Of a stretch of 44,162 nt of DNA, positions 18,110 through 41,316 are shown piece by piece; position 1 is the stretch's first letter; each line of letters begins with the position of its first letter. The notes beneath the pieces are model-generated. The model ran no database searches. It had not been told where the DNA came from and was given only the letters and a program-made list of their open reading frames with translations. This stretch comes from Spirochaetales bacterium (GTDB lineage: Bacteria; Spirochaetota; Spirochaetia; DSM-27196; SLST01), in the NCBI GenBank assembly GCA_007130265.1, contig SLST01000114.1, forward strand, positions 1 through 44,162, written 5' to 3'. The position numbers were made by a program, and so were the translations under genes.

Positions 18110-19021
18110 AGCGATCCTGCCTACCCGCTCGGGGGTCTGCTCGAAGGTAGTCAGAGACGGAAAAATGCCGACGATACTCGGCAGGTTGCCGAAGCCGAAG
18201 ATCGAGAGGTCCTCCGGAACCCGCAGCCGGCACTCCTGGGCTGCACGGTAGACATGGTAGGCAATGTAGTCGTTGAAGGCGAAGACCGCGGTGGGACGGT
18301 CGATCTCGCGCAGAAGACAAAGGGACTCCTCGTAGCCCCCGTGCACGCGGGATATACGCACGACTGTACAGCGGGCTTCACCGTGATCGTTGACCCGGGA
18401 GATGAACGGCTCGCCGCGTCCGCCGTCCTCCGTCAGCCCTCCAGCCTCGCTCATGTAGCAGATGTGGCGGTGACCGAGCCCCAACAGATGATCAGCCGCC
18501 AGGCGAGCCCCGAGCGCATTGTCTGTGACGACCGCGTCGCGGTGGACCGCTTCGACCGCCCGGTCGACCAGGACCACCGGGATGGACAGATGGTCGATGT
18601 AAGTGTAGAAGGACTCTGAGAGATCGTCACTGCACATGATGATCCCATCCACGCGTTGGTCCACGAGGCGGTGTACCTGTGCGGCATCATGGTACCGAGC
18701 ATCGTCATGCCTTGGCCAGACAATGATGGGCAGATAGTCGGCGGGTATAAGGGCGTTGTGGATTCCAGCGAGCACCCTGCCGCGGAACAAAGGGTCGTCG
18801 GTGATATCAAGAAGAACCCCAACAATTCCCGACCGCCCAGTCTGCATGGTTCGTACCGCGAGGTTCGGCCGGTAACCCAACTCGCCGGCGATTCTTTCGA
18901 TGCGTTCGCGAGTCTGCGGTGAGATCTCCCCCTTATTGCGGAGTACCCGCGACACGGTGCTGGCGGACACGCCTGCAGCCTGCGCTATCGATCTGATACC
19001 AATGCTCTTGTCGAATCGCAT
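17528..19021 (-). CDS. LacI-family transcriptional regulator with anomalous ~150-aa C-terminal read-through
   Basis: IRSIAQAAGVSASTVSRVL HTH, LGYRPNLAVR hinge, PTAVFAFND, VPEDLSIFGF, ending HRRSTGP near 18010; ATG at 19021 with GAAGGA. Confidence 0.9.
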   Translation of the reverse strand: MRFDKSIGIRSIAQAAGVSASTVSRVLRNKGEISPQTRERIERIAGELGYRPNLAVRTMQTGRSGIVGVLLDITDDPLFRGRVLAGIHNALIPADYLPIIVWPRHDDARYHDAAQVHRLVDQRVDGIIMCSDDLSESFYTYIDHLSIPVVLVDRAVEAVHRDAVVTDNALGARLAADHLLGLGHRHICYMSEAGGLTEDGGRGEPFISRVNDHGEARCTVVRISRVHGGYEESLCLLREIDRPTAVFAFNDYIAYHVYRAAQECRLRVPEDLSIFGFGNLPSIVGIFPSLTTFEQTPERVGRIASERILQRISGELSDPPETILLEPTMVHRRSTGPAPNPSLPVSGDHEQAHRTADPGPGKFRTIPARCPAGRDTQPTASGNVQLVPGRATKSGHTERRGHRCGVADRGDIKSSTSTGTDHSRHVDPGGNRTGPPSEDGYEAARVSAEADDAIRLVPFERTDRATIQVVKPRLARPVGERDGDRGGLLVRGDPKPV

Positions 19022-19034
19022 TGTCTTTCCTTCT

Positions 19035-19063
19035 ACTATGGAGTACTTTCGGCCAGAGCGCAA
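19035..19063 (-). promoter_or_regulatory. Candidate sigma70 promoter for the LacI gene (TTGCGC-N17-CATAGT)
   Basis: Exact 17-nt spacer; the -35 lies inside the 16-bp palindrome. Confidence 0.5.
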
Positions 19064-19095
19064 GTACTTGCGCAAGCGTGTGCAAATACTTGTTG
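19058..19095. promoter_or_regulatory. Candidate operator pair: perfect palindrome GCGCAAGTACTTGCGC (19058-19073) and imperfect copy GTGCAAATACTTGTTG (19080-19095)
   Basis: Located between the LacI gene and the divergent ABC operon, overlapping both -35 boxes. Confidence 0.65.
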
Positions 19096-19121
19096 ACAGA
19101 TGCCGGCTCGCGTAGTAGGAT
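19093..19121 (+). promoter_or_regulatory. Sigma70 promoter for the sugar ABC operon (TTGACA-N17-TAGGAT)
   Basis: Consensus -35, 17-nt spacer, TAnnAT -10. Confidence 0.75.
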
Positions 19122-19131
19122 GCGCGCAACC

Positions 19132-20082
19132 ATGACTGAAACGTCCGTGGAACAGACCATCGTTCACCGACGGAAGTCCTTCGGTCGATATTTCGCCGTG
19201 AACAAGGCTCTGTACGCGATGCTCGTTCCGGGCCTGCTCGTGCTACTCGTCTTTCGTTACCTGCCGATGTACGGTCTGATCATTAGCTTCCAGCATTTCC
19301 ATCCGGCCGTCGGAATCGCCGCAAGCAGATGGGTCGGTTTCGCCCATTTTGTGAACTTCTTCAACGATCCGTACTTTGTCCGGCTCATCCGCAACACGTT
19401 CCTGCTCGGTCTCTATACGCTCATCATCGGATTTCCTGCGCCCATTGTCTTCGCCATACTGCTCAACGAGCTGCGAGTGCATACCTTCAAGCGGGTCGTC
19501 CAGACGATATCCTACATGCCTCACTTCCTTTCCATTGTCGTGGTGATTGGCCTGTTGCGACAGCTCACCAGCATGAGCGATGGCGTCATCAACGACATGA
19601 TCGAGAGCTTGGGCGGTGCGAGGATCCACTTCTTCGCTCGGCCCGAGTGGTTTCGCCCGCTCTACATTACTTCCGTGATCTGGCAGGGAGTTGGCTTCGG
19701 CTCGATTCTCTATCTTGCGGCCATTGCTGGCATCAACCCCGAGCTCTACGAGTCTGCCGTTATGGACGGCGCCAACCGTTTCGCACAGATATGGCACATC
19801 ACCCTGCCGTCGATTCTACCCACGATCACAATTCTTTTCATCTTGGCGGTCGGGGGCATACTCGGGAACGATTTCCAGCGGGTCCTACTCATGTACAGCC
19901 CGTTCAACTATGAGACGGCGGACGTAGTTCAGACCTATGTCTACCGGGTGGGGCTCGAGAGCCCGAGCCCGAACTTCAGCTACGCGGCCGCCGTAGGACT
20001 CTTCATGGCGGTCATTTCGCTCGTCTTCCTGATCGTCACCAACAGGCTAGCGAAGACGGTTGGAGAGTCGTCGCTGTGGTAG
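19132..20082 (+). CDS. Carbohydrate ABC transporter permease (LplB-like)
   Basis: YLPMYGLIISF, QTISYMPHFLS, EAA-type loop LYESAVMDGANRFAQIWHITLP; multiple TM segments. Confidence 0.92.
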   Translation: MTETSVEQTIVHRRKSFGRYFAVNKALYAMLVPGLLVLLVFRYLPMYGLIISFQHFHPAVGIAASRWVGFAHFVNFFNDPYFVRLIRNTFLLGLYTLIIGFPAPIVFAILLNELRVHTFKRVVQTISYMPHFLSIVVVIGLLRQLTSMSDGVINDMIESLGGARIHFFARPEWFRPLYITSVIWQGVGFGSILYLAAIAGINPELYESAVMDGANRFAQIWHITLPSILPTITILFILAVGGILGNDFQRVLLMYSPFNYETADVVQTYVYRVGLESPSPNFSYAAAVGLFMAVISLVFLIVTNRLAKTVGESSLW

Positions 20083-27602: not shown

Positions 27603-29105
27603 ATGAAGAAGCGGCCGAACCTGATCTATGTCCTTGCGGATGATCTGGGCTATGGCGACGTCTCGTGTCTCAACGAGCGCGCCGCATGGCGGACTCCAGC
27701 GTTCGATCGTCTTGCCGCCGAAGGAATGAGTTTCACCGATGCGCATGCGTCCTCTGCAGTGTGTACACCCTCGAGGTACTCGATCCTGACTGGACGGTAC
27801 AATTGGCGATCGCGGCTCAAGCAGTCGGTCATGGGCGGATACTCGCCACCGTTGATCGAGGATGGACGATCGACGGTCGGCTCAATGCTACGCGAGGCAG
27901 GGTACCGGACCGCCTGCATCGGCAAGTGGCACTTGGGTATGGACTGGGCCCGCAGCAGAACGGTTCCAGAGGCGCCTCAGTTCGGTCACACGGAGGGCGT
28001 CGAATTCGACCGCCCTATCTCAAACGGGCCGGTAACGCGTGGCTTCGACTATTTCTACGGCATTGCCGCCTCTCTGGATATGCCGCCGTATGTGTACATA
28101 GAGAACGAAAGGGCAACCGAAGTCCCGGATCACGACTCCGAGAATACCGGCCAGCAGGTATGGCGTGAGGGTCCCACCGCGCCGGGATTTCGGCACGATG
28201 AAGTCCTTCCACGCCTGACGAAGAAGGCGCTTGAGATCATCGATGCGTGGGCCGACGAGCCTTTCTTTCTCTACTTCGCGCTGCCAGCGCCACACACCCC
28301 AATACTCCCGGTGGGTGACTTTGTCGGCAAGAGTGGGACCACGGCCTACGGCGACTTCGTGCTGATGTGTGACGACGTGGTCGCCCAACTGACCTCCGGG
28401 CTCGAGGAAAAAGGCATCGCGGAGGACACCATCTTTGTCTTTACGAGCGATAACGGTTGTTCACCAATGGCCGACTTCAAGGCGCTTGCCCGGTACGATC
28501 ACAACCCTAGCTATGTCTTTCGTGGCGCCAAGGCCGACATCTACGAAGGTGGGCACCGGATTCCACTCCTCGTTCGCTGGCCCGCTCAGATACGGGCCGG
28601 CAGCCGCTGCGACCAGACAGTGTGTCTCGCGGATCTCTACGCGACCATGGCGGAAGTTACCGGGACATTCGTCCCGGACGAGGCGGGCGAAGACAGCGTC
28701 AGCAATCTGCCACTCTGGATGGAGTCGGCGGGCGATGCTTCCTTGCGGGAGGCAACGGTACACCATTCCATCGACGGATCCTTCTCGCTTCGCAAGGGCA
28801 GGTGGAAGCTCGAGCTCTGTCCGGGATCCGGCGGGTGGAGCGAGCCGCGACCGGGCGAGGAGCCTCCGGGCTCGCCGGAGTTCCAGCTCTACGACCTGGA
28901 GTCAGACGTAGGAGAGCGGCGGAATCTCGTAGATGAGCACCCTGAGGTCGTCGATGAGCTCAGGGCCCTTCTTGCTGAGTACGTTGTGAACGGTCGAAGC
29001 ACGCCCGGCAAGCCGCAGAAGAACACCGCACCCGAGTGGTGGGAACAGCTGAAATGGATGGAGCGGGACTATTCCACGCCCTTGAGCGAGAGCTCATCCG
29101 AATAG
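27603..29105 (+). CDS. Arylsulfatase (S1, Cys-type), paralog of 25869..27461
   Basis: [52 protein letters not shown]. Confidence 0.95.
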
Positions 29106-30112
29106 TGACACGCAGCGTAGTGGTCCGGCGAGACCTCGCGCCATTGAGGTACTTCAGTCCGGCAACGGTCGGTCGCATGCCCGCACCGGGGATGGAACGG
29201 GCAGCCGGAGGGTACTGCAGCGGGGTTCGCTACCTCGCCGGGCAGTACGATTCGGTTCGTTCTCCAATCCGGATCGGGACGCGGAACGGCAGAGAGCAGG
29301 GCCTCGGTGTACGGATGCTTGGGGTTGACGAATAGCTCTTCAGTACGGGCCATCTCCACGGTTTTGCCCACGTACATGACCATCACCCGGTCGCTGATGT
29401 GTTCGACCACGCTCAGGTTGTGCGCGATGAACATATAGGTCAAGTGGAACTCCTGCTGCAGATCCTGCAGCAGATTCAGAATCTGCGCCTGGATGGAGAC
29501 GTCGAGAGCGCTCACCGCCTCGTCGCAGACGATCAGCTGTGGATTCGTGGACAACGCCCGAGCGATGCCGATCCGCTGCCGCTGGCCGCCGCTGAACGCG
29601 TGAGGGTAACGGTTGAGGTGCTTGACCTCGAGTCCGACCACCCCCATCAGATAGCGAACCCGATCCTTCAGCCCGTCTCCGGATGCAAGCCCGCTGACCC
29701 GCAGTGGCTCACCGACGATATCCAGGATCGTCATACGTGGATCGAGCGAACTGTAGGGATCCTGAAAGATCATCTGGGCATGCCGTCGAATGCGGCGAAG
29801 CTCTCGATTGTCGAGTGAGGTGACATCCACCTCTTCGCCTCCATTCAGCCTGAACGTTACTCTGCCGTCGGTGGGCTCGATCGCACGCAGAATACACCGA
29901 CCAAGTGTGGTCTTGCCGCAACCGCTCTCTCCCACAACCCCGAGAGTCTCGCCGCGGTTGATGAAGAGGCTGACGTCGTCGACAGCTTTCACATGACCGA
30001 GCACCTTCCTCATGAAGCCCTTCTCGATCGGGAAGAACTTCCTCAGGTGCTCTACCTGCAGAAGTCGCTGATCCTGACCGGTAGTCGGCGCTGCGTTCAC
30101 TTCGGCGCTCAT
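29069..30112 (-). CDS. Opp/Dpp-type ABC ATP-binding protein (OppF-like)
   Basis: [31 protein letters not shown], Cys-rich C-terminus GCPFHPRC. Confidence 0.95.
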
Positions 30113-31209
30113 AGCTGGCTTCCCTCGGCTAGCGGTTCTTCATGCGGCGCCCCTGCAGACCTCCGTCGACGTGTCTTGCGAAGCTGCTTCGAAGTCTCAG
30201 TCGGTCTCGACTCCTGTCCTTCACTGTGCAGGAAGCATCGAACCCTGTGCCCGTCACCCATGTCGACCAGAGCGGGCACTGCCACATCGCAATGTCCGGC
30301 CTTCCGGTCCGGGCACCGATTCCAGAAACCGCACCGCCATGGTGGGTTGATTGGTATCGGGACAGTTCCGCTTATGGCATCCAGACGAACGCGGGCCTTC
30401 CGTCCGAGCATCGGTATACTTTTCAGAAGCCCGCGCGTGTAGGGATGGAGCGGAGAGTGGAAGATCTGCCGGGTAGTCCCTTGTTCCACGACACGGCCCA
30501 GGTACATCACCGCGACCTCGTCGGCAATCTCGGCGATGACGCCAAGATCATGCGTGATGTAGAGTATGCTCATCCCGTACAGATCCTGCAATTCGCGCAT
30601 CAACTCGAGTATCTGTGCCTGGACTGTCACGTCGAGCGCGGTGGTCGGCTCGTCGGCGATCAGCAGTGTTGGACGGCACGACAATGCCATCGCGATCATC
30701 GCTCGCTGCCGCATCCCACCGGAGAACTGGTGCGGATACTCATCTATTCTCTGTCTGGGATTACTGATTCCCACTCGTTCGAGCATCTCAAGCGTTATCT
30801 CCCTGGCTTCCCGGTCGTTCGGCGTCCGGTGCAGCAGAATCGCCTCCATGATCTGGTTGCCGATTGTGTGGACCGGCGATAGGCTGGTCATGGGCTCCTG
30901 GAAGATCATCGATATATGCCTGCCTCGGATCGAGCGCATTCTTTCGCCACTCTGATCGAGTGCCGTGAGGTCGACCGGCTCCTCCTCATCGGTCTGCAAG
31001 AGGATCTGTCCTCCGACGATCTGCCCTGGATTGGGGACGATCCGGAGGATACTCTGCGCGGTGACGCTCTTACCGCAACCACTTTCGCCGATGATACCGA
31101 GCGTACGCTTTGAGGCGACGTCGAAGCTCACACCATCGACAGCCTTCAGAACTCCGTCATCGAGGTTGAAGTAGGTACGCAGGTTGTTCACTTCTATAAC
31201 GCTACTCAA
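30109..31209 (-). CDS. Opp/Dpp-type ABC ATP-binding protein (OppD-like)
   Basis: [28 protein letters not shown]; probable TTG start at 31209 after GGGGAG. Confidence 0.92.
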
Positions 31210-31235
31210 AATCTCCCCTCGTTTCGCGTCCCGGC

Positions 31236-32369
31236 TCACTTGTACGGATCGGCAGCGTCGCGCAACCCGTCGCCCAGAAAGTTGATCGCAAGCACCGCAA
31301 CAATTACGAAGAGCGCCGGTAGGAGCAGCCACGGATGAAGCGCGACCGTCTGTACGCTCTGTGCGCTCTGGAGCAACACTCCCCAGCTGACCGCAGGCGC
31401 TCGTAATCCAACCCCAATGAAGCTCAGCGCCGTCTCCCCAAGAATCATCGTGGGAATGCGCAGCGTCATGTTCACAATGAGGTAGCTCATGAACGAAGGC
31501 AGGAGATGTTTGGCGATGATCCCGGCGTCCGTCATGCCCGCGATCCGTGCAGCCATCACGAAGTCCTCCTTCCTCACCTGGAGCAACTTGCCTCGCACGA
31601 CGCGAGCCTGTCCGGTCCACGCCATCGTCGCGAGCACGATGGTGATCCCGAAGTAGACCCGCACTATCGGCCAGTCCGGCGGCAGGGCTGCTGCAAGCGC
31701 GAGCCAGAACGGTATCTGCGGAATCGCCAGCAAGAACTCGATCAGCCGTTGGATAACCATATCCACGTAGCCGCCATAGTAGCCTGCGAGTCCCCCGAAT
31801 ATGCACCCCAGGACGAATGCGATCAACACGCCAATCAACCCGACTGACAACGAGAGCCGCGCGGCGTACAGATTCCGGGTGAACAGGTCACGGCCCATGC
31901 TGTCGGTTCCGAACAGGAAGATTACTCCCCCGGGTTCGACACCGAACAGGTGGATATCGGTCTCGACGAGACCCCAGAAACGATACGGTGTCCCCCGGGT
32001 GAAGTAACGGATTGGGTAGACTTCTGAGGTATCGTCCTCGTAGACGCGTCTGAACGTCGCGCGATCGAGGGTTCCGCGGTACCCATAGACGAACCCACCG
32101 GGGTAGAACCGTCCATCCTGGTCGAAGAACCGGACGCGCATCGGTGGGCTGTAGATGTAGTCCGAGAAGCGTTGTGTGGGAGTGTACGGAGCGAGAAACC
32201 CACAGAAGATCCCCACCAGGTACATGAAGGCAATCACTACCAGTCCAGCAATGGCAAGTTTGTGCTTGAAGAACTTTCTTCTAATCAGCACCCACTGGGA
32301 TGCCATGTAGTACGATTCTTCCTGCGTTGCCTCTTCTGCCGTTGTGAGCACTTTCGATTCGTCAGTCAT
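31236..32369 (-). CDS. Opp/Dpp-type ABC permease (OppC-like)
   Basis: FGTDSMGRDLF, DFVMAARIAG, ETALSFIGVG, NFLGDGLRDAADP; AAGGA SD. Confidence 0.93.
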   Translation of the reverse strand: MTDESKVLTTAEEATQEESYYMASQWVLIRRKFFKHKLAIAGLVVIAFMYLVGIFCGFLAPYTPTQRFSDYIYSPPMRVRFFDQDGRFYPGGFVYGYRGTLDRATFRRVYEDDTSEVYPIRYFTRGTPYRFWGLVETDIHLFGVEPGGVIFLFGTDSMGRDLFTRNLYAARLSLSVGLIGVLIAFVLGCIFGGLAGYYGGYVDMVIQRLIEFLLAIPQIPFWLALAAALPPDWPIVRVYFGITIVLATMAWTGQARVVRGKLLQVRKEDFVMAARIAGMTDAGIIAKHLLPSFMSYLIVNMTLRIPTMILGETALSFIGVGLRAPAVSWGVLLQSAQSVQTVALHPWLLLPALFVIVAVLAINFLGDGLRDAADPYK

Positions 32370-33345
32370 ATCGAATCCTTGGATCAAGCGCTGCGAGCAA
32401 TATGTCGGAGATGAACATGCCGAGGATCGTCAGTGCGCTGAGCAGCATGAGAATGGATGCGGAAAGATACATGTCCTGACTCAGGAGCCCCTGGAGCAGC
32501 AACGGTCCAACGGTCGGTAGATCAAGTACGAGCGCGACGATCGTCTCGCCCGACACGATCGCCGGCAGGACCCAACCGATCGTACTGACGATCGGGTTCA
32601 GGGCAATTCGTACTGGGTACTTGAACAGGATAGTCCGCTCGTCCACACCCTTGGTTCGGGCGGTTATGACGTACTGTTTGGACAGCTCGTCGAGAAGCGT
32701 TGCACGCATCACCCGGATTATGCTCGCCGTGCCGGCGGTGCCAATGACGATGACCGGAATCGGGAGGTGTTTGATGAGGTCCCAGACCTTCCCCCAACTC
32801 CACGCTGCCCGCAGGTACTCAGGCGAGAAAAGTCCGCCCACGCTCATACCGAGGTAGCGATAGGAGACAAACATCAGGATCAATGCCAGCAGGAAGTTAG
32901 GTACGGCAAGGCCGACGAATCCGACCACGGTCGCAGCGTAGTCACCAATGGAGTACTGTCGCGTGGCAGAATATATCCCGATGGGAATCGCGACGGCGTA
33001 CGTGAACAGGAGGGTGATCAAACTGATCGTGACCGTCAGGGCAAGACGTTCACCAATAAGCGCAGCTACCGGACGGTTGTACTGAAAAGAAATCCCGAAG
33101 TTCCCTCGAAGCGCGGAGCTGATCCAGCGGAAATACTGAACGTAGACGGGCCGATCCAGCCCGTACGCCGCCCGCATGGCCGCAATCTCCTCGCGGCTCA
33201 CTTCCGCGTCCATCTCCTGTCTCGAAGCTATATAGGTTGATAAAAAGTCACCGGGCGGAAGCTGAATGACCATAAACGACACGATCGACACAAGAAGCAG
33301 GAGAACAAAGGTGTAGAGCACTCTTCGGACAAGATAGCGGGTCAC
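32362..33345 (-). CDS. Opp/Dpp-type ABC permease (OppB-like)
   Basis: IQLPPGD, YGLDRP, YVITARTKGV, ALDPRIR; GTG start with AGGAGG. Confidence 0.93.
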   Translation of the reverse strand: MTRYLVRRVLYTFVLLLLVSIVSFMVIQLPPGDFLSTYIASRQEMDAEVSREEIAAMRAAYGLDRPVYVQYFRWISSALRGNFGISFQYNRPVAALIGERLALTVTISLITLLFTYAVAIPIGIYSATRQYSIGDYAATVVGFVGLAVPNFLLALILMFVSYRYLGMSVGGLFSPEYLRAAWSWGKVWDLIKHLPIPVIVIGTAGTASIIRVMRATLLDELSKQYVITARTKGVDERTILFKYPVRIALNPIVSTIGWVLPAIVSGETIVALVLDLPTVGPLLLQGLLSQDMYLSASILMLLSALTILGMFISDILLAALDPRIRYD

Positions 33346-33421
33346 GGACGCTCGCCTCCTGGAGCACTGCTCGCCATTCGGTCACAGGCAGTTATCACTA
33401 TTTGCGGAAACGGACCTGGGG

Positions 33422-33481
33422 ATTTAAGCATGACTCAGGCCGGTTGTCAAGCTTGACGGTATGCCGATACTGGCCTACAGT
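33422..33481. promoter_or_regulatory. Back-to-back sigma70 promoters: minus TTGACA-N17-TTAAAT (permeases) and plus TTGACG-N17-TACAGT (SBP)
   Basis: The -35 boxes are 2 bp apart and form the palindrome GTCAAGCTTGAC (33446-33457); the plus promoter is conserved in the paralog at 38961. Confidence 0.7.
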
Positions 33482-33487
33482 AACGAT

Positions 33488-33720
33488 TGGACGGTGCTGT
33501 CATGCCGACTGTCAGGCAAATCGCTAGACATATGAGCTTCGCTGATCGCAATTCTGCTGGCTTGTTACCTTCTTCTGTCAGAGTGATGCTCATGGAATCC
33601 AGCACGGCCTCATCCTATTTGTATATATCAAAAGGAGATGCAGACGGGAGCATTGGCTGCCGTGACGACGAGGGGGCATCGAGTTTCCTCGTCGAGATGT
33701 TCCAGTAGAGGAGGGACACG
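33488..33720 (+). ncRNA. Candidate structured cis-regulatory 5' leader, copy A
   Basis: Helices shared with copy B with compensatory changes (see findings); family not recognised. Confidence 0.5.
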
Positions 33721-35709
33721 ATGAAAAGGTTTCTGTTGATGCCGACTCTGATGGTGCTGCTCGCGCTGTCCGCTTTCGGCGGGGCGCAGCCGGAAGAAGT
33801 GCAACCGGCCACAGCACCCGGAGTTGATGCGGAAGTGTGGGAGACCCCGGCGGTGTACGCAACCCCTGGGGATTTCCAGCGAGAGACCGGCGCTCAGTTG
33901 CCGCCGTACAATGAAGCGCCTGTCTTCCGGGAGCGAGTCGAGACGGGAGAACTGCCGCCAGTCGAAGACCGGCTGCCGGTAGAACCGCTCGTCGTGCGGC
34001 CGTGGAACCAGATAGGCACGTACAGCGAACGGGAGATCAGCGGGGACTCGGGAGATATTGCTTGCGCGAATGCACAGCATCTTCTGGAGATCATCGCGCC
34101 GGACTTCGCCACGCCGGTCCCGAACGTGTTGAAAGGGTACGTCCTCTCAAGCGATGCACGCAGCATAACGCTGCACCTTCGGGAAGGTCTGCGTTGGTCC
34201 GACGGCCATCCGCATACCGCCGACGACTTTGTGTTCTGGTATGAGGACGTTCTGAACAACTCGCAGCTCACACCCGCAAGACCGGCGATCTACACCTCGG
34301 GCGGTGAGTTCATGGATCTGACGAAGATTGACGACTACACCGTGCGGCTCGACTTCGCAGAGCCGTATCCGGCCATTACTGACGTCCTCGCAAGCGACCA
34401 ATGGTGGCAATACCCCATTCCGCCAAAGCACTACATGCAGCAGTGGCATATCGATTACAACCCGGATGCAGACGAGCTTGCGCGCGAGGAAGGGTTTGAG
34501 ACGTGGTACCAAGCATTCCTGATGCACAATACTACCGGGGCAGGCCAGCAGGACGTCGATCGTCCCGTTGTCTACCCGTGGAAACTCGTATCGATCGACA
34601 GCGCACAGAACCAGTATTGGGAGAGAAACCCGTACTTCTGGAAGGTCGATATCGCCGGCAACCAGCTGCCCTACATCGGACGCCTGAACGGTGTGCAGGT
34701 CGGGGATGCCCAGACCAAGCAGCTGCGCGTTATCTCCGGAGCCTTCCAGATTGGAGGCATCCTTCAGCCGCTGGCCTCTTATCCTCTCTATCTGGACAAC
34801 GCTGAGCGGGGAGATTACCGCGTGATGCTATGGGACGATCCTCGCGGCGCTTTTCGCGGTGCAGTTACGCTGAACCAGACGTCCAAGGATCCGGTGAAGC
34901 GTGAACTGTTCAGTGAGCTGAGGTTTAGACAGGCGCTGTCACTTGCGATCGACCGAGACGACGTGAATGAGACCTTGTTCTTCGGTCTGGGGGAACCGCG
35001 GCAGCCAGCCCCACCACCACCGGCCAGCCAATTCTACGAAGAGTGGATGAGGGATCACTACGCTGAGTACGATCCCGCCCGGTCGAACGCGCTGCTTGAT
35101 GAGATGGGGCTTCAGTGGGATGGCAGGCGGCAGTACCGTCTCCGACCTGACGGAGAACCACTCTCCATAAATCTCCAGTTCGTTGGGCAGTTTGATGGTA
35201 TTGCTCAGCTACTGCAGGAGTATTGGCAAGCGGTCGGGGTTAGAGTGGCTCTGCGAGAGGTCACCGGTGCAATGTGGACCCAGCTCGTGGACGCCAACGA
35301 TACGGATCTCGGAATTTGGTCAGTCGAGAATACTGACTTTGGAATGAGGCGAACTGGAGCGTCACCGGCGCGGCCACCGTGGACAGGAGCAAACGTACCT
35401 TGGGACCTCTGGTATGTCACGGGAGGAGCATCCGGTGAGGAGCCTCCCGAGGCTGTTCGAGAGCTGTACGCTTTGATCGATGAGTGGACACTGACGATTC
35501 CCGGCACTGAAAGGTACGTTGAGCTCGGAAAGGAAATCTGGAGAATCAACATAGAGAATCTTTTCATGATTGGCGCGGTCGGCCTTGTCCCGTACCCGGT
35601 CATCATCTCCAACAGTCTGGGTAACACAATGCCGGACGAGAGTCTCTGGAGCCCGAGTTTCCAACAGTGGGTTCCGTACATGGCTGAACAGTGGTTCTTC
35701 GTCGATTGA
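33721..35709 (+). CDS. ABC solute-binding protein, family 5 (OppA/DppA-like, probably oligosaccharide-binding), copy A
   Basis: Signal peptide; GELPPVEDRLPVEP, LREGLRWSDGHPHTADDFVFW, ERNPYFWKVD..GNQLPYI, FRQALSLAIDR; AGAGGAGG SD. Confidence 0.93.
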   Translation: MKRFLLMPTLMVLLALSAFGGAQPEEVQPATAPGVDAEVWETPAVYATPGDFQRETGAQLPPYNEAPVFRERVETGELPPVEDRLPVEPLVVRPWNQIGTYSEREISGDSGDIACANAQHLLEIIAPDFATPVPNVLKGYVLSSDARSITLHLREGLRWSDGHPHTADDFVFWYEDVLNNSQLTPARPAIYTSGGEFMDLTKIDDYTVRLDFAEPYPAITDVLASDQWWQYPIPPKHYMQQWHIDYNPDADELAREEGFETWYQAFLMHNTTGAGQQDVDRPVVYPWKLVSIDSAQNQYWERNPYFWKVDIAGNQLPYIGRLNGVQVGDAQTKQLRVISGAFQIGGILQPLASYPLYLDNAERGDYRVMLWDDPRGAFRGAVTLNQTSKDPVKRELFSELRFRQALSLAIDRDDVNETLFFGLGEPRQPAPPPPASQFYEEWMRDHYAEYDPARSNALLDEMGLQWDGRRQYRLRPDGEPLSINLQFVGQFDGIAQLLQEYWQAVGVRVALREVTGAMWTQLVDANDTDLGIWSVENTDFGMRRTGASPARPPWTGANVPWDLWYVTGGASGEEPPEAVRELYALIDEWTLTIPGTERYVELGKEIWRINIENLFMIGAVGLVPYPVIISNSLGNTMPDESLWSPSFQQWVPYMAEQWFFVD

Positions 35710-35723
35710 TTGGTTCATATTCT

Positions 35724-35749
35724 ACCGCTACCGGCCGGCCGGTAGCGGT
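35724..35749. terminator. Perfect 26-bp palindrome after SBP A (stabiliser or leaky terminator)
   Basis: ACCGCTACCGGCC|GGCCGGTAGCGGT; no U tract. Confidence 0.55.
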
Positions 35750-35920
35750 GTGTGCAGTCCCGTGCGGTGCTGGTCTCAATGAGAGGCCAATGGACGACGA
35801 TCAACGAAATGTGTCTGAGGGAGCGTTGATACCGCATAGTAGAACCTCCGGAACGCATCTCTTTGTGATTGGGGCAAAGACGATCGGCCAAGCGCGATCA
35901 TTCCGTATGAGGAGGTTTCT

Positions 35921-37363
35921 GTGATCAGCCGCCTACCGAATATTGTTCTGATCATGTGCGATGATCTCGGTTACGGGGACACTGGGTTCAACGGTAACGA
36001 GGTAATACGAACCCCCAATCTGGATGAACTTCGTTCCGAAGGAGCACGCTTCACCAGGTTCTTCGCCGGAGGTCCTGTCTGCTCTCCTACACGTGGCACC
36101 TGCCTGACGGGACGCCATTATTCACGCTATGGCATCACGCACGCGAACAAGGGGCGTCTTCCGACGCAGGAGATATCGCTGGGCGTGGCCTGTAAGCAGT
36201 GCGGCTATCGGACCGGCCATTTCGGCAAATGGCATCTTGGCACCCTCACCACGGATATCCCCGACAGCAGGAGAGGCGGTCCAGATCATCTGCATGAGTA
36301 TTCACCACCATGGTTGCATGGGTTTGACACCTGCTTCTCCACAGAAGCCAGAGTGCCAACCTGGGACCCGATGGTGACACCAGATGAGATTGGTCCGAAA
36401 GGGCAAAAGCACGGAGTGCCCGGCTCACCTTTCGGCGCTTTCTACTGGAATCAGGAAGGAACTATCGCAAAAGACAACCTTCGAGGCGACGACTCAAGGG
36501 TGATCATGGACAGGGTGGAGCCCTTCGTGCGCGAATGCGCTTCCGCCGACGAACCCTTCCTCGCGGTCGTCTGGTTTCACACGCCGCACACGCCGGTTGT
36601 TGCCGGCCCCGAATACCGGGCTATGTACTCGCGCTTCAGCGATGACGAGCAGCACTATTACGGGTGCGTTACTGCGATGGACGAGCAAGTAGGCAGACTT
36701 AACCGCTTGCTCAAGGAGCTTGGGCTCGAGGATAGAACGATGCTCTGGTTCTGTTCGGATAACGGTCCTGAAGGTTCGGAGAACGTCTCTCAGAACGGAC
36801 GTAACAGGGGCAGTACCGGAGGCCTCAGAGGACGCAAGCGTAGCCTCTTTAACGGCGGTATTGGCGTGCCGGCATTGCTGAAATGGCCTGGGCCCGTTTC
36901 TCCAGGAACCCAATACGATATGCCCTGCAGCACCCTGGACTATTTCCCGACGATCACTGAACTCATTGGCTTCACCGTGCCCGACAACAGACCCATTGAC
37001 GGCATCAGCCTCCTACCACTCATAGACAGCCAGTTGTCGATACGCCCGAAGCCGATTCCTTACCGCTTCATGGAAAGGAGGGACTCGATGTTCGGATCGC
37101 CGACACACGCCCTCATAGACAGTCAGCACAAATATCTAACGAACTTTTCGGCTGATGGGTCCGAGGACATGCTCTTCAACATTGACTCGGATGTCAATGA
37201 ATGTACAAGTATCCTGAGTGGCTGTCCGGACCGTGTACGTGAGATGCGCGAACACCTGCAGAGCTTCATCGAGTCCTGCCGAAGAAGCCACTACGGGCAC
37301 GACTATCCAGAGCCGAGCGAACCCATAGAAGACTTTCAGGAGATCACCGGGACGTGGCGATGA
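35921..37363 (+). CDS. Sulfatase (S1, Cys-type; GalNAc-6-sulfatase-like)
   Basis: PNIVLIMCDDLGYGD, CSPTRGTCLTGR, GKWHLG, CSDNG, GRKRSL; GTG start with GAGGAGG. Confidence 0.93.
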   Translation: MISRLPNIVLIMCDDLGYGDTGFNGNEVIRTPNLDELRSEGARFTRFFAGGPVCSPTRGTCLTGRHYSRYGITHANKGRLPTQEISLGVACKQCGYRTGHFGKWHLGTLTTDIPDSRRGGPDHLHEYSPPWLHGFDTCFSTEARVPTWDPMVTPDEIGPKGQKHGVPGSPFGAFYWNQEGTIAKDNLRGDDSRVIMDRVEPFVRECASADEPFLAVVWFHTPHTPVVAGPEYRAMYSRFSDDEQHYYGCVTAMDEQVGRLNRLLKELGLEDRTMLWFCSDNGPEGSENVSQNGRNRGSTGGLRGRKRSLFNGGIGVPALLKWPGPVSPGTQYDMPCSTLDYFPTITELIGFTVPDNRPIDGISLLPLIDSQLSIRPKPIPYRFMERRDSMFGSPTHALIDSQHKYLTNFSADGSEDMLFNIDSDVNECTSILSGCPDRVREMREHLQSFIESCRRSHYGHDYPEPSEPIEDFQEITGTWR

Positions 37364-37512
37364 GGAATCGTCATTACTGAGCGGTGTCGCGCCACGAGGC
37401 CGTGTGCCGCTCGCGAAGCTTGGGAGGTCTCACCGTACCAGAGATGAGTCGGTCTGAGAGTCCATCTGCGTTGACTGGCGGACCGAACTCATTTATAGCA
37501 TGGGAGGAATAC

Positions 37513-38838
37513 GTGCCATCACCTAAGCCCAACTTTCTCTTCTTCTTTCCTGACCAGCAACGTCCTGATTGGCTGGGATTCGGGCCCGGGCTGGACGTAC
37601 AGACGCCTACGCTCTCCAGGATCGCCCAGCGTGGCGTTCGTTTTGCCGAGGCACTGACGCCAAGCCCGCTGTGTGCACCGGCTCGCGCTTGTCTTGCCTC
37701 CGGACGTGGATACCGTGACTGTGGCGTTTCCGACAACCGCAGCGACTATCCACTTGAACTTCCGACATACTACCAGGTGCTACGGGACGTCGGATACCGC
37801 GTCGCTGGGGTTGGTAAGTTCGATCTGCACAAAGACACTTCTGATTTCGCACAACTTGATTGGTACATGGACGGATCTCGGCTACTCTCCGAGTGGGGTT
37901 TCACCGAGGGCGTAGATAACGAGGGGAAGATCGATGGTAGCATGAGCTACCGACAGGCGGGTCGGGCCAAGGGCCCGTACATGAAAACCCTCGCTGACCG
38001 TGGCCTGGCCGAGGCCTATCTGGCAGAACACGACCGACTGGGTGATGGCCCTGGTGCCTACACAACGATCGTCCCGGACGACCTCTACTGCGACAACTGG
38101 CTCGCAGAAAACGGGAAGCAGATCCTTCAGGGTTTCCCGGAAGATCAGCCGTGGCATCTAATCGTCAACTTCACAGGACCTCATAGCCCAATGGACGTGA
38201 CCGAGTCAATGCGTCGAAGTGTTGAGCATCGCACCTATCCTCATGCTATAGCAAACGACCGCCACGATGCAGACGCCATTCTGAGGGTTCGACAGAACTA
38301 CACGGCCATGGTGGAGAACATCGATCGGCTCATGGCCGAGATGATTGAGATTGTTCAGGGACGTGGCGAACTTGAGCGAACCATGGTCATCTACTCCAGC
38401 GACCACGGCGAGATGCTGGGGGACTTCGGTCTATTCGGCAAGGGCATCTGGCGGTACGCTGCCGCTCACATTCCGCTTGTCATTCAGGCACCCGGCGCCC
38501 AAGGCGGTGCGGTATCGGACGCGCTGGTCGACCTGACTGATGTTACTGCAACCATACTCGACTATGCGGGATGCGAGCCGCTGCCGGAGATGACTGGCAG
38601 GAGTTTGCGGCGGGTGCTTGAGTTCCCCGGCCAGCCTCACCGCGACGTCGCCGTATCAGCTTTGGGCGACTGGCGTCTCGCCTACGACGGAAGAAACAAG
38701 CTTGTCCTCGAGAAAGGAAGAGCTCCGCGGCTGTTCGACCGCCAGCATGATCCGTTTGAACAGATCGACTGCGCGACCGAACGTCCCGAGACAGTCGCCT
38801 ATCTTGGCCGATATCTCTGCGAGGTGTCGAAGACCTGA
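37513..38838 (+). CDS. Sulfatase-like hydrolase (S1, Cys-type; choline-sulfatase-like)
   Basis: PNFLFFFPDQQR, CAPARACLASGR, SDHGEMLGD..LFGK; GTG start at 37513 with GGAGG. Confidence 0.88.
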   Translation: MPSPKPNFLFFFPDQQRPDWLGFGPGLDVQTPTLSRIAQRGVRFAEALTPSPLCAPARACLASGRGYRDCGVSDNRSDYPLELPTYYQVLRDVGYRVAGVGKFDLHKDTSDFAQLDWYMDGSRLLSEWGFTEGVDNEGKIDGSMSYRQAGRAKGPYMKTLADRGLAEAYLAEHDRLGDGPGAYTTIVPDDLYCDNWLAENGKQILQGFPEDQPWHLIVNFTGPHSPMDVTESMRRSVEHRTYPHAIANDRHDADAILRVRQNYTAMVENIDRLMAEMIEIVQGRGELERTMVIYSSDHGEMLGDFGLFGKGIWRYAAAHIPLVIQAPGAQGGAVSDALVDLTDVTATILDYAGCEPLPEMTGRSLRRVLEFPGQPHRDVAVSALGDWRLAYDGRNKLVLEKGRAPRLFDRQHDPFEQIDCATERPETVAYLGRYLCEVSKT

Positions 38839-38960
38839 CACCCTCGCAGCGAAAGCCTCGATTGCCGTCTCCGGCCTCCGACTCCCGAAACCGGAGCGGG
38901 TGCCGTGCCGGTTCGATCAGCCGCGCCCTGCGCGTCGAACACCGTCAGCGGACGTCGCGA

Positions 38961-38989
38961 TTGACGGCACCTCTATACTGCTCTACTAT
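38961..38989 (+). promoter_or_regulatory. Sigma70 promoter for SBP B (TTGACG-N17-TACTAT)
   Basis: Positionally homologous to 33453-33481. Confidence 0.72.
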
Positions 38990-38995
38990 GGCGAG

Positions 38996-39228
38996 CAGAT
39001 GGTGCTGCCATGCCGATTGTCGAGCGAGCCGATAGAAACTGCTGCACAGCTGATTTCACACTTCAACCCGCTATCGACTTCTCCTGCCAGAGCGGTACAG
39101 ATCGAGGCCAGCACGACTCTATCCCATCTGCCATATCCACGGGAAATGCAGACGGCAGCATTGATTGCCGTGACGGCGAGGAGACCTCCAGTCAACTCGT
39201 CGAGATGTTCGAGTAGAGGAGGGACACG
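38996..39228 (+). ncRNA. Candidate structured cis-regulatory 5' leader, copy B
   Basis: Covarying helices relative to copy A. Confidence 0.5.
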
Positions 39229-41217
39229 ATGAAAAGGTTTCTGTTGATACCGGCTCTGATGGCACTGCTCGCGCTGTCCGCTTTTGGCGGGGCGCAGCCG
39301 GAAGAAGTCCAACCGGCCACAGCACCCGGAGTTGATGCGGAAGTGTGGGAGACCCCGGCGGTGTACGCAACCCCTGGGGATTTCCAGCGAGAGACCGGCG
39401 CTCAGTTGCCGTCGTACAATGAAGCGCCTGTCTTCCAGGAGCGAGTCGAGGCAGGAGAACTGCCGCCAGTCGAAGACCGGCTCCCAGTCGAGCCCCTTGT
39501 CGTGCGGCCGTGGAACCAGATAGGCACGTACAGCGAACGGGAGATCGCGGCCGACTGGAGGGATCTTGCTTCCGCGAACGCACAACACCTTCTGGAGATC
39601 ATCGCGCCGGACTTCACCATGCCGGTTCCGAACGTGCTGAAAGGCTATGATCTCTCAGATGACGCACGCAGCATAACACTGCACCTTCGAGAAGGTCTGC
39701 GTTGGTCCGACGGCCATCCGCATACGGCAGACGACTTCGTGTTCTGGTATGAAGACGTTCTGAACAATTCGGAGCTCACGCCTGCACGGCCCGCGGTCTA
39801 TTTTTCTGCCGGTGTGTTCATGGATCTGACGAGGATCGACGACTACACCGTTCGGCTCGACTTTGCCGAACCGTACCCGGTCATCCTCGACGTTCTCGCG
39901 AGTGAACTTTGGTGGCAATATCCTATTCCGCCAAAGCACTACATGCAGCAGTGGCATATCGACTACAATCCGGATGCAGGCGCGCTTGCGCGCGAGGAAG
40001 GTTTTGAGACCTGGTACCAGGCATTCTTGATGCACAATGCCACCGGCGCAGACCAGCAGGACGTCGACCGCCCAACGGTCTACCCATGGGTACTGACGTC
40101 TATCGACAGCGCCCAGAACCAGTACTTCGAGAGGAACCCGTATTTCTGGAAGGTTGATATCGCCGGCAATCAGCTGCCCTATATCGGCCGCATGACTGGC
40201 GTGCGGGTCGGTGATGCTCAGGTCAAGCAGCTGAGAGTCATCTCGGGCGACTTTCATCTAGGGGGGGTGTGGCAATCGGTCGCTAACTATCCGCTCTATC
40301 TCGATAACGAGGAGCGCGGAAACTATCGAGCGATGCTGTGGGAAGATCCACGCGGATCAATGGATACTGCGATCAGCCTCAACCAAACCTCGCCGGATCC
40401 GGTCAAGAGGGAAATGTTCCGAGATCTTCGGTTCCGACAGGCGCTCTCGCTTGCCATCGACCGAGAGGAGATGAACGAGACGCTCTTCTTCGGCCTGGGC
40501 GAACCGCGACAGGCCGCACCACCGCCCGCAGCGAGCGATCTCTTCGAAGAGTGGATGCGCGACTACTATGCCGACTATGATCCTGCAAGAGCAAATGAGT
40601 TGCTCGACGAGATGGGACTCCAGTGGGACGCCCGACGTGAGTTTCGTCTCCGTCCGGACGGACAGCCGGTCACGATAAACATGCAGTTCGTCGAGCGGTA
40701 CGATCCCATATCGCAGCTGCTGCAGGAGTACTGGCAGGCGGTAGGCGTGAGGGTCACACTCAGGCAGGTGACCGGCGCGATGTGGACCGAGCTTGTACAG
40801 GCCAACGAGACCGACATGGGGCGCTGGGCGCTTGAGAACACCGACTTCACGATGCGGCGCACCCGTGCTGCAGTCGCACGGCCGCCGTGGACCGGCGCCA
40901 ACTATCCATGGGGTACATGGTACACGACGGATGGTGCGTCAGGTGAAGAGCCACCGGAGACCGTCAAAGAGTTGTACCGCGTGATTGACGAGTGGTCGAC
41001 GACGGTGGCTGGGACGGATCGCCACATCGAGCTGGGCAAAGAGATCTGGCGAATCAACATTGAGAATCTTTTCGTGATCGGAGCGGTCGGTCTCGTTCCG
41101 TACCCGGTTATCATCACCAATAGTCTGGGTAACACAATGCCGGACGAGAGCCTCTGGAGCCCAAGCTACCAGCAGTGGGTGCCGTACATGGCCGAACAGT
41201 GGTTTTTTGTTGATTGA
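39229..41217 (+). CDS. ABC solute-binding protein, family 5, copy B
   Basis: Same length and motifs as copy A. Confidence 0.93.
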   Translation: MKRFLLIPALMALLALSAFGGAQPEEVQPATAPGVDAEVWETPAVYATPGDFQRETGAQLPSYNEAPVFQERVEAGELPPVEDRLPVEPLVVRPWNQIGTYSEREIAADWRDLASANAQHLLEIIAPDFTMPVPNVLKGYDLSDDARSITLHLREGLRWSDGHPHTADDFVFWYEDVLNNSELTPARPAVYFSAGVFMDLTRIDDYTVRLDFAEPYPVILDVLASELWWQYPIPPKHYMQQWHIDYNPDAGALAREEGFETWYQAFLMHNATGADQQDVDRPTVYPWVLTSIDSAQNQYFERNPYFWKVDIAGNQLPYIGRMTGVRVGDAQVKQLRVISGDFHLGGVWQSVANYPLYLDNEERGNYRAMLWEDPRGSMDTAISLNQTSPDPVKREMFRDLRFRQALSLAIDREEMNETLFFGLGEPRQAAPPPAASDLFEEWMRDYYADYDPARANELLDEMGLQWDARREFRLRPDGQPVTINMQFVERYDPISQLLQEYWQAVGVRVTLRQVTGAMWTELVQANETDMGRWALENTDFTMRRTRAAVARPPWTGANYPWGTWYTTDGASGEEPPETVKELYRVIDEWSTTVAGTDRHIELGKEIWRINIENLFVIGAVGLVPYPVIITNSLGNTMPDESLWSPSYQQWVPYMAEQWFFVD

Positions 41218-41240
41218 CGCCATGACCCAGTCTTGACGTC

Positions 41241-41277
41241 AGGCGGGAGCGCATACAGCGTTCCCGCTTTTTTGTTT
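41241..41277 (+). terminator. Intrinsic terminator after SBP B
   Basis: AGGCGGGAGCGC-ATACA-GCGTTCCCGCTT followed by TTTTGTTT. Confidence 0.85.
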
Positions 41278-41316
41278 CCTTGCCGCGACAGTGCGTACGT
41301 GAAGGAGAACGCTGAG

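Follow-up and report, generated by a model that had tools for sequence, protein, structure and literature searches.

In enterobacteria, oppA and dppA are family-5 solute-binding protein (SBP) genes with long 5' untranslated regions (UTRs), and both are targets of the small RNA GcvB. Stabilizing hairpins within a 5' UTR are known from the ompA leader of E. coli and the aprE leader of B. subtilis, and Borrelia possesses multiple oppA paralogs with separate promoters and one permease/ATPase set. The window analyzed here, a whole stretch of 44,162 nucleotides from a Spirochaetales bacterium (a lineage with no known small RNA), resembles the Borrelia arrangement in that several separately promoted family-5 SBP genes lie beside a single membrane/ATPase gene set, although the two share no common sequence and the paralogs in our window are interleaved with sulfatase genes.

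The assembly originated from a soda-lake metagenome, and the locus is a polysaccharide-utilization locus. Encoded in the window are GH95-like, GH78 rhamnosidase, GH35, and heparinase-II/III-like enzymes, six sulfatases, a LacI-family regulator, a CUT1-type ABC transporter, and, on the minus strand, an Opp/Dpp-type ABC transporter. The last of these is presumably the membrane/ATPase partner served by both SBPs, whose cargo is likely a sulfated oligosaccharide rather than a peptide. One of its ATPase open reading frames (ORFs), of 565 aa (30109-31806, minus strand), overlaps a permease ORF (31236-32387), and its ABC domain begins at residue 223; the real start of this ORF probably lies much further in than the one listed. 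The LacI-family regulator gene, on the minus strand with a likely start at 19021, and the CUT1 permease operon diverge from a promoter region (19022-19132) that contains a perfect 12-bp palindrome, GCAAGTACTTGC, at 19060-19071, and a near copy at 19082-19093 adjoining TTGACA; the two are likely an operator pair. A LacI-type operator at the SBP promoters was rejected: no copy of this palindrome is found close to them, and a LacI-type operator consensus has 0 matches in the window.

The sequence-only reading of this DNA had proposed that a leader of ~230 nt in front of each family-5 SBP gene is a cis-regulatory RNA under selection for its structure. Both leaders are present, and the features relevant to them are the following.

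29069-33345, minus strand: divergent Opp/Dpp-type ABC transporter genes (ATPases 29069-30112 and 30109-31806; permeases 31236-32387 and 32362-33345).
33453-33481, plus strand: promoter-like site A, TTGACG-17-TACAGT; homology between the copies starts at ~33450.
33488-33720, plus strand: leader A, the presumed 5' UTR of SBP A; an RNA-library contig from a relative begins at the position matching 33497.
33493-33513, plus strand: conserved 21-nt block, GGTGCTGYCATGCCGAYTGTC, with 19/21 positions identical in copy B (39001-39021).
33494-33605, plus strand: proposed 5' domain A, in which helix i (33494-99/33600-05) encloses helix ii (33534-43/33582-91).
33502-33708, plus strand: 68-codon ORF of leader A; its TAG (33706-33708) abuts the Shine-Dalgarno sequence (SD) of the SBP gene, the last G being common to both.
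33609-33704, plus strand: 3' domain A, with hairpins iii-a (33619-33643), iii-b (33644-33663), and iii-c (33666-33694), closed by CATC/GATG (z -3.68).
33708-33723, plus strand: SD, GAGGAGGG (33708-33715), and ATG (33721) of SBP A.
33721-35709, plus strand: family-5 SBP A (662 aa).
38961-38989, plus strand: promoter-like site B, TTGACG-17-TACTAT, from the motif scan.
38996-39228, plus strand: leader B, the presumed 5' UTR of SBP B, with the conserved block at 39001-39021.
39002-07/39109-14 and 39042-51/39091-100, plus strand: helices i and ii of the proposed 5' domain B, which pair in the alignment.
39010-39216, plus strand: 68-codon ORF of leader B, spanning that leader.
39117-39212, plus strand: 3' domain B, with hairpins iii-a (39128-39151), iii-b (39152-39171), and iii-c (39174-39202) (z -1.56).
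39229-41217, plus strand: family-5 SBP B (662 aa), identical to A at 546/662 residues (82%).

The TTGACG-N17-TAC(A/T) boxes, which had been described as equidistant from the two start codons, were confirmed, each lying 268 nt from its own ATG; the motif as such is not enriched (3 sites in the scan vs. 2.4 +/- 1.4 in shuffles). Counted from 33483 and 38991 to the ATG, the leaders are exactly equal in length at 238 nt, and their alignment of ~244 columns comprises 170 invariant, 72 variable, and 2 gapped columns.

The SBP pair is an ancient duplicate with a recent gene-conversion tract that is centered on the 5' end of the gene and reaches the 3' leader, and the duplicated unit is exactly promoter, leader, and gene. 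The limits of homology are sharp, falling at the -35 box (~33450) and the SBP stop codon (33450-35709 vs. 38958-41217). Ungapped identity is ~0.25 upstream of 33450, 0.66 at the -35 box, and 0.94-1.00 over 33700-33900, past which it decays along the SBP gene to reach ~0.3 right after the stop codon. Identity at fourfold sites is 0.97 in codons 1-60, 0.79-0.81 in codons 61-180, 0.23-0.29 in codons 361-600, and 0.52 in codons 601-660; the duplication must be old because synonymous sites are saturated in the third of these segments. Within the leader, block identities run, 5' to 3', 0.77, 0.55, 0.49, 0.63, 0.81, 0.72, and 0.97 (alignment A2); columns 214-244 are 0.97 identical, while columns 143-213, at 0.72-0.81, fall below the neighboring synonymous sites. 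The earlier description of two heavily diverged sequences therefore suits the leader middle (0.49-0.55) but not the remainder, where block identity is as high as 0.97. Because the conversion tract runs into the 3' leader, the near invariance of the 3' hairpins is uninformative on structure; further, as the 3' hairpin region is less conserved than its neighboring synonymous sites, the sameness of these hairpins requires no structural selection.

We consider an ordinary promoter followed by a long 5' UTR with stabilizing hairpins to be the best reading of the locus, with a probability of roughly 0.5. Each SBP gene would be transcribed from a sigma-70-type promoter of its own, with a 5' UTR of ~230 nt. 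The promoter-leader-gene unit was duplicated long ago, and gene conversion has since homogenized its 5' part, comprising ~25 nt at the 3' end of the leader and roughly the first 0.5 kb of the gene. Within the final ~95 nt of the leader, three hairpins are predicted, immediately before a strong SD. These may act as an ordinary mRNA element, protecting against decay and/or tuning translation initiation, a role that would suit a binding protein that must outnumber its membrane partners. The promoter would then control transcription together with the 21-nt block (~+6 to +26), which may be a protein-binding site or an element of the 5' end.

Three features fall within the 21-nt block: the 5' arm of helix i, the start codon of the 68-codon ORF, and a direct repeat with 12-nt spacing (CTGTCATGC / CTGTCAGGC). 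Helix i pairs the block with a complementary second island of conservation, CCAGCACG. Beyond its two copies, neither the window nor the whole genome contains the block again, a third site (3 mismatches) being at the level of the controls. The block is conserved above the leader middle even though it lies further from the center of conversion. It could bind a protein near the transcription start, supply the 5' strand of a real long-range helix, or be where translation of the ORF initiates.

The stability of the 3' hairpins on the sense strand is the only real structural signal in the leader. The three hairpins and their YATC/GATG closing helix pair in both copies, as had been claimed. Alifold analysis of the 3' domain yielded a z of -3.14 for the plus strand (2/200 shuffles as low) and -0.23 for the minus strand, and dinucleotide shuffles placed copy A at -3.68 (0/200) and copy B at -1.56 (14/200). 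Against the ordinary-UTR reading, the 7-bp base stem of hairpin iii-c is built of words that are common genome-wide (CGRCGAG...CTCGTCG with a 9-17 nt spacer, 74 vs. 16 for the reversed control). Asp-Glu / Leu-Val codon pairs in a GC-rich genome probably account for their abundance, which inflates the number of apparent hairpins. A stretch resembling hairpin iii-b (39153-39171) is also found at 38847-38872, upstream of the copy-B promoter and just past the sulfatase stop codon (15 nt at 87% identity; a 26-nt repeat at 73%); it may be the remnant of an older leader copy.

Of the competing explanations, the one that survives best is a lineage-specific structured cis-regulatory RNA, although we regard it as possible rather than likely. 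Under this model the 5' domain would sense a ligand or bind a protein and signal to the three-hairpin junction, where alternative 4-bp closings would free (YAUC/GAUG) or mask (UCCY/GGGA) the SD. The pairings on which it was founded are accurate as described: GTGCTG/CAGCAC is invariant, and helix ii differs between copies by three double changes and one change from G-U to G-C. Left out of that description are 3/20 unpaired cells in helix ii, one in copy A (U.U) and two in copy B (C.A and A.G). Two further double changes are located in an extension of helix i (alignment A2 columns 7/128 and 10/126), and all five fall within the 5' domain. With this extension, the claimed structure has 40 pairs, 96.3% of cells paired, and 5 double changes, compared with 0-1 in slid controls; against this, the same two sequences served both to choose the structure and to test it.

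The inference of selection on RNA structure through covarying helices did not hold up in alignment shuffles, in which invariant and variable columns were permuted separately so as to preserve the conservation pattern. For the full leader, alifold gave a z of -1.0 (45/300 shuffles as low) and an SCI of 0.56 vs. 0.51, and shuffled alignments contained a mean of 4.7 compensatory pairs. For the 5' domain, the z was -0.92 (35/200), and the 3 compensatory pairs in the real alifold structure compare with a shuffle mean of 3.48 (138/200 shuffles had at least 3). Nor does the 5' domain carry a thermodynamic signal: its dinucleotide-shuffle z was -0.04 in copy A and +0.87 in copy B, where the minimum free energy (MFE) fold is without helix ii, and single-sequence MFE z values for the full leader were -0.77 (A) and +0.62 (B). 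Helices i and ii are not a demonstrated structure.

Several observations nevertheless favor structure in the leader over an ordinary 5' UTR. The pairing of helix ii is kept through three double changes in the least conserved stretch, and a comparable 10-bp window (at least 17/20 cells paired and at least 3 double changes) arose in just 5/200 shuffles; the criteria were set after the helix had been seen, and this rarity is suggestive only. Helix i joins the two most conserved islands outside the conversion tract, which are mutually complementary (chance ~0.04 by a rough hand estimate). Paired columns vary less than unpaired ones (18/80 vs. 53/135; Fisher p 0.016), a comparison biased by the choice of a structure that pairs in both copies. 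Finally, even the worst leader block (0.49) is alignable, vs. 0.25 at synonymous sites, which could reflect constraint rather than older conversion. The restriction of 3' domain stability to the sense strand is likewise consistent with a regulatory RNA.

For a switch acting on the SD, alifold offers an alternative 4-bp pairing of columns 132-135 with SD columns 232-235. The predicted accessibility of the SD is unequal, however, with a mean unpaired probability of 0.51 in copy A (half accessible) vs. 0.22 in copy B (mostly paired), and the SD has different pairing partners in the two copies. Neither leader contains a terminator-like site, the sole one in 33200-39400 lying outside them at 37671-37688. 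With no terminator and inconsistent masking of the SD, an expression platform is not clearly recognizable in the leaders.

Known families were not found either. A scan of the whole window with Rfam 15 (4227 models, small RNAs included) at gathering thresholds returned 0 matches, in agreement with the earlier judgment that the leader is not a T-box or a cobalamin, TPP, lysine, glycine, or c-di-GMP riboswitch; a regulatory RNA here would thus be new. At E<=1 over 33300-39300, the only hit was sR28, at 35586-35610 inside the SBP A coding sequence (17.7 bits vs. a threshold of 39). In the full-text literature, as far as it was accessible to our search, we found none on such a leader.

Relatives of the leader were sought with covariance models built from the two copies, R1 for the 3' domain and R2 for the 5' domain, and none was found beyond the two copies themselves. 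In the organism's own 4.47-Mb assembly (86% complete), BLAST and both models agree on 2 copies. R2 recovered only these among 12 genus genomes and 99 order genomes. R1 gave four weak foreign matches: the best (G002:C48, 28.5 bits) was rejected because it lies within an open-ended 817-aa ORF, and the others (G023, G006, and G019), at 20.6-21 bits and per-genome E values of 0.04-0.08, are at chance level over 99 genomes. At the first 52 listed of 189 SBP-homolog loci, there was nothing credible upstream of the SBP gene and no match to R2; two R1 matches, one in an SBP coding sequence on the opposite strand (L009) and one 2.7 kb upstream on the opposite strand (L122), are spurious. Covariation among independent homologs, as a riboswitch should display, was therefore not seen, only two paralogous copies being present among the sequences searched. 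The SBPs themselves have no homolog above ~45% identity in the collections searched. Among 41 related genomes, the best match besides the second copy (82%) is 42% identical; the best values on JGI metagenome contigs (best 80 of 197) and GTDB genome contigs (best 80 of 183) are 45% and 41%. As none of these SBP relatives (up to ~45% identity) is close enough, their leaders are unalignable. Judged by these searches, the leader element appears confined to one narrow lineage.

Contigs from sequencing runs offer further hints. In metatranscriptome run X8, a 2686-nt contig, ~92% identical to the window, covers the equivalents of 33497-33591 and 38902-41298, the latter comprising a B-type upstream region, promoter, whole leader, and gene. 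The presence of the leader in this RNA library agrees with an ordinary 5' UTR and also with a cis-regulatory role, and since the contig runs through the leader, a transcription start downstream of the helices, which would have undercut the proposal, is unlikely; this is a contig-level hint. Contigs cannot show RNA ends, and the end and coverage of the X8 contig are hints only; the 21 letters past its end (the 33497 equivalent) are presumably Illumina adapter. The equivalent of 33497-33591 is joined to that of 38902 via 16 other letters, skipping SBP A and two sulfatases. In this relative, B-type upstream sequence accordingly follows where the A-type leader part ends at the equivalent of 33591, and helix i is missing its 3' arm, an arrangement that speaks against a regulatory RNA. 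The contig also has a 1-nt insertion behind 39141, in apical hairpin iii-a, that is uncompensated (3 gaps in this piece, all listed). X8 contigs are absent from 33396-33496 and from most of the SBP A and sulfatase genes. DNA contigs at ~92% identity came from sediment and soda-lake runs. In a second relative of about this identity (a DNA run), the end of the first sulfatase (37363) is joined to 38976 and the second sulfatase is skipped. SBP and sulfatase cassettes would seem, from these junctions, to be gained or lost in the lineage.

In sum, what stands of the proposed cis-regulatory RNA is a real, long, duplicated leader of no Rfam family with stable sense-strand 3' hairpins, while its covariation and 5' fold do not.

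Somewhat less probable still is a leader that has no sequence-specific function beyond promoter and SD, its alignability owed to repeated gene conversion and its hairpins to chance in GC-rich sequence. The gradient of identity centered on the 5' end of the coding sequence agrees with such a view, as do the lower conservation of the 3' hairpin region relative to adjacent synonymous sites and the genome-wide commonness of the CGRCGAG...CTCGTCG words. In addition, the alignment of a DNA contig from run X5, which matches the permease genes at ~92% identity, breaks off at 33451, its 516 further letters being unplaced among the matches listed (a hint only). Opposed to it are the conservation of the 21-nt block and promoter (0.77, vs. 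0.49-0.55 in the middle) despite their greater distance from the conversion center, the 3' domain of copy A, than which none of 200 shuffles was as stable, and the exact agreement in leader length.

The boldest form of the regulatory model warrants even less credence, and we consider it doubtful. It would have a young, lineage-restricted riboregulator of sulfated-glycan uptake, in which the GUGCUG/CAGCAC helix closes a fast-evolving sensor, helix ii is kept by compensatory change, and the three-hairpin junction, triggered by a sugar, sulfated oligosaccharide, or protein partner, toggles between SD-free and SD-masked states. A true ligand-sensing RNA at this position would be a rare carbohydrate-linked riboswitch and a handle on the control of sulfated-glycan uptake in a soda-lake bacterium.

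We also considered whether the 68-codon ORF is a translated upstream ORF, such that ribosomes reading its codons would unfold the hairpins, with coupling or tuning of SBP translation as the result; this is very improbable. The frame is open in both copies, where the other two forward frames contain 3-5 stops, and its start (an ATG preceded by GGTG) and TAG are conserved, the latter 12 nt before the SBP start. Both peptides are also called as proteins in a public collection, in which each forms a singleton cluster. Yet differences by codon position (30/35/28) lack a third-position excess, GC by codon position is weakly gene-like, and +1 and -1 indels (A2 columns 69 and 142) put homologous bases out of frame for ~24 codons, leaving the peptides 40% identical. 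In X8, the insertion behind 39141 would, projected onto the letters of the window, stop the frame at 39162-39164. No Pfam match reached the cut-off, and no other homolog was found in 5.8 billion proteins (2 matches from 3 candidates, both the window's own). The sole other match in 1.84 billion representatives, a 1931-aa repeat protein (P0003), was rejected as a homolog: its score sums weak repeats, and the matching segment is not common to A and B. The database records are probably false gene calls, and a conserved coding or coupling role for this ORF is unlikely.

An antiterminator-protein target (RAT/BglG-type or ANTAR) was set aside, as the leaders have no terminator and none of 29 window proteins scanned against Pfam has an antiterminator domain, and a dispersed repeat (REP/MITE-like) was rejected on the presence of just 2 leader copies in the genome.

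As the evidence stands, the main value of this locus is as a caution that gene conversion between paralogs mimics covariation. The misleading pattern consists of invariant hairpins adjoining a diverged stretch that carries a few "compensatory" changes; the column-shuffle control demonstrates that 3-5 such changes are expected by chance when a structure is optimized over two sequences of this divergence.

Compared with riboswitches and other cis-regulatory leaders in Rfam, the SBP leaders are similar in their position between promoter and SD, their length, and a multi-stem junction adjoining the SD, and differ in having no Rfam match, above-chance covariation, terminator, or consistent SD-masking helix, and in being restricted to two paralogous copies in one lineage. 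They share with enterobacterial oppA and dppA the combination of Opp/Dpp-type family-5 SBP genes, their own promoters, and unusually long leaders, post-transcriptional control being a feature of oppA and dppA. The sequences are unrelated, as are the organisms, we identified neither a small RNA nor a C/A-rich target site, and the SBPs of the window probably carry a sulfated oligosaccharide where the enterobacterial ones carry a peptide. The ompA and aprE leaders differ in that these classic stabilizers are situated at the very 5' end, whereas the hairpins described here are 130-215 nt downstream of the presumed start; they are alike in placing stable stem-loops, with no ligand, in a long leader before a strong SD on the mRNA of a highly expressed envelope or secreted protein.
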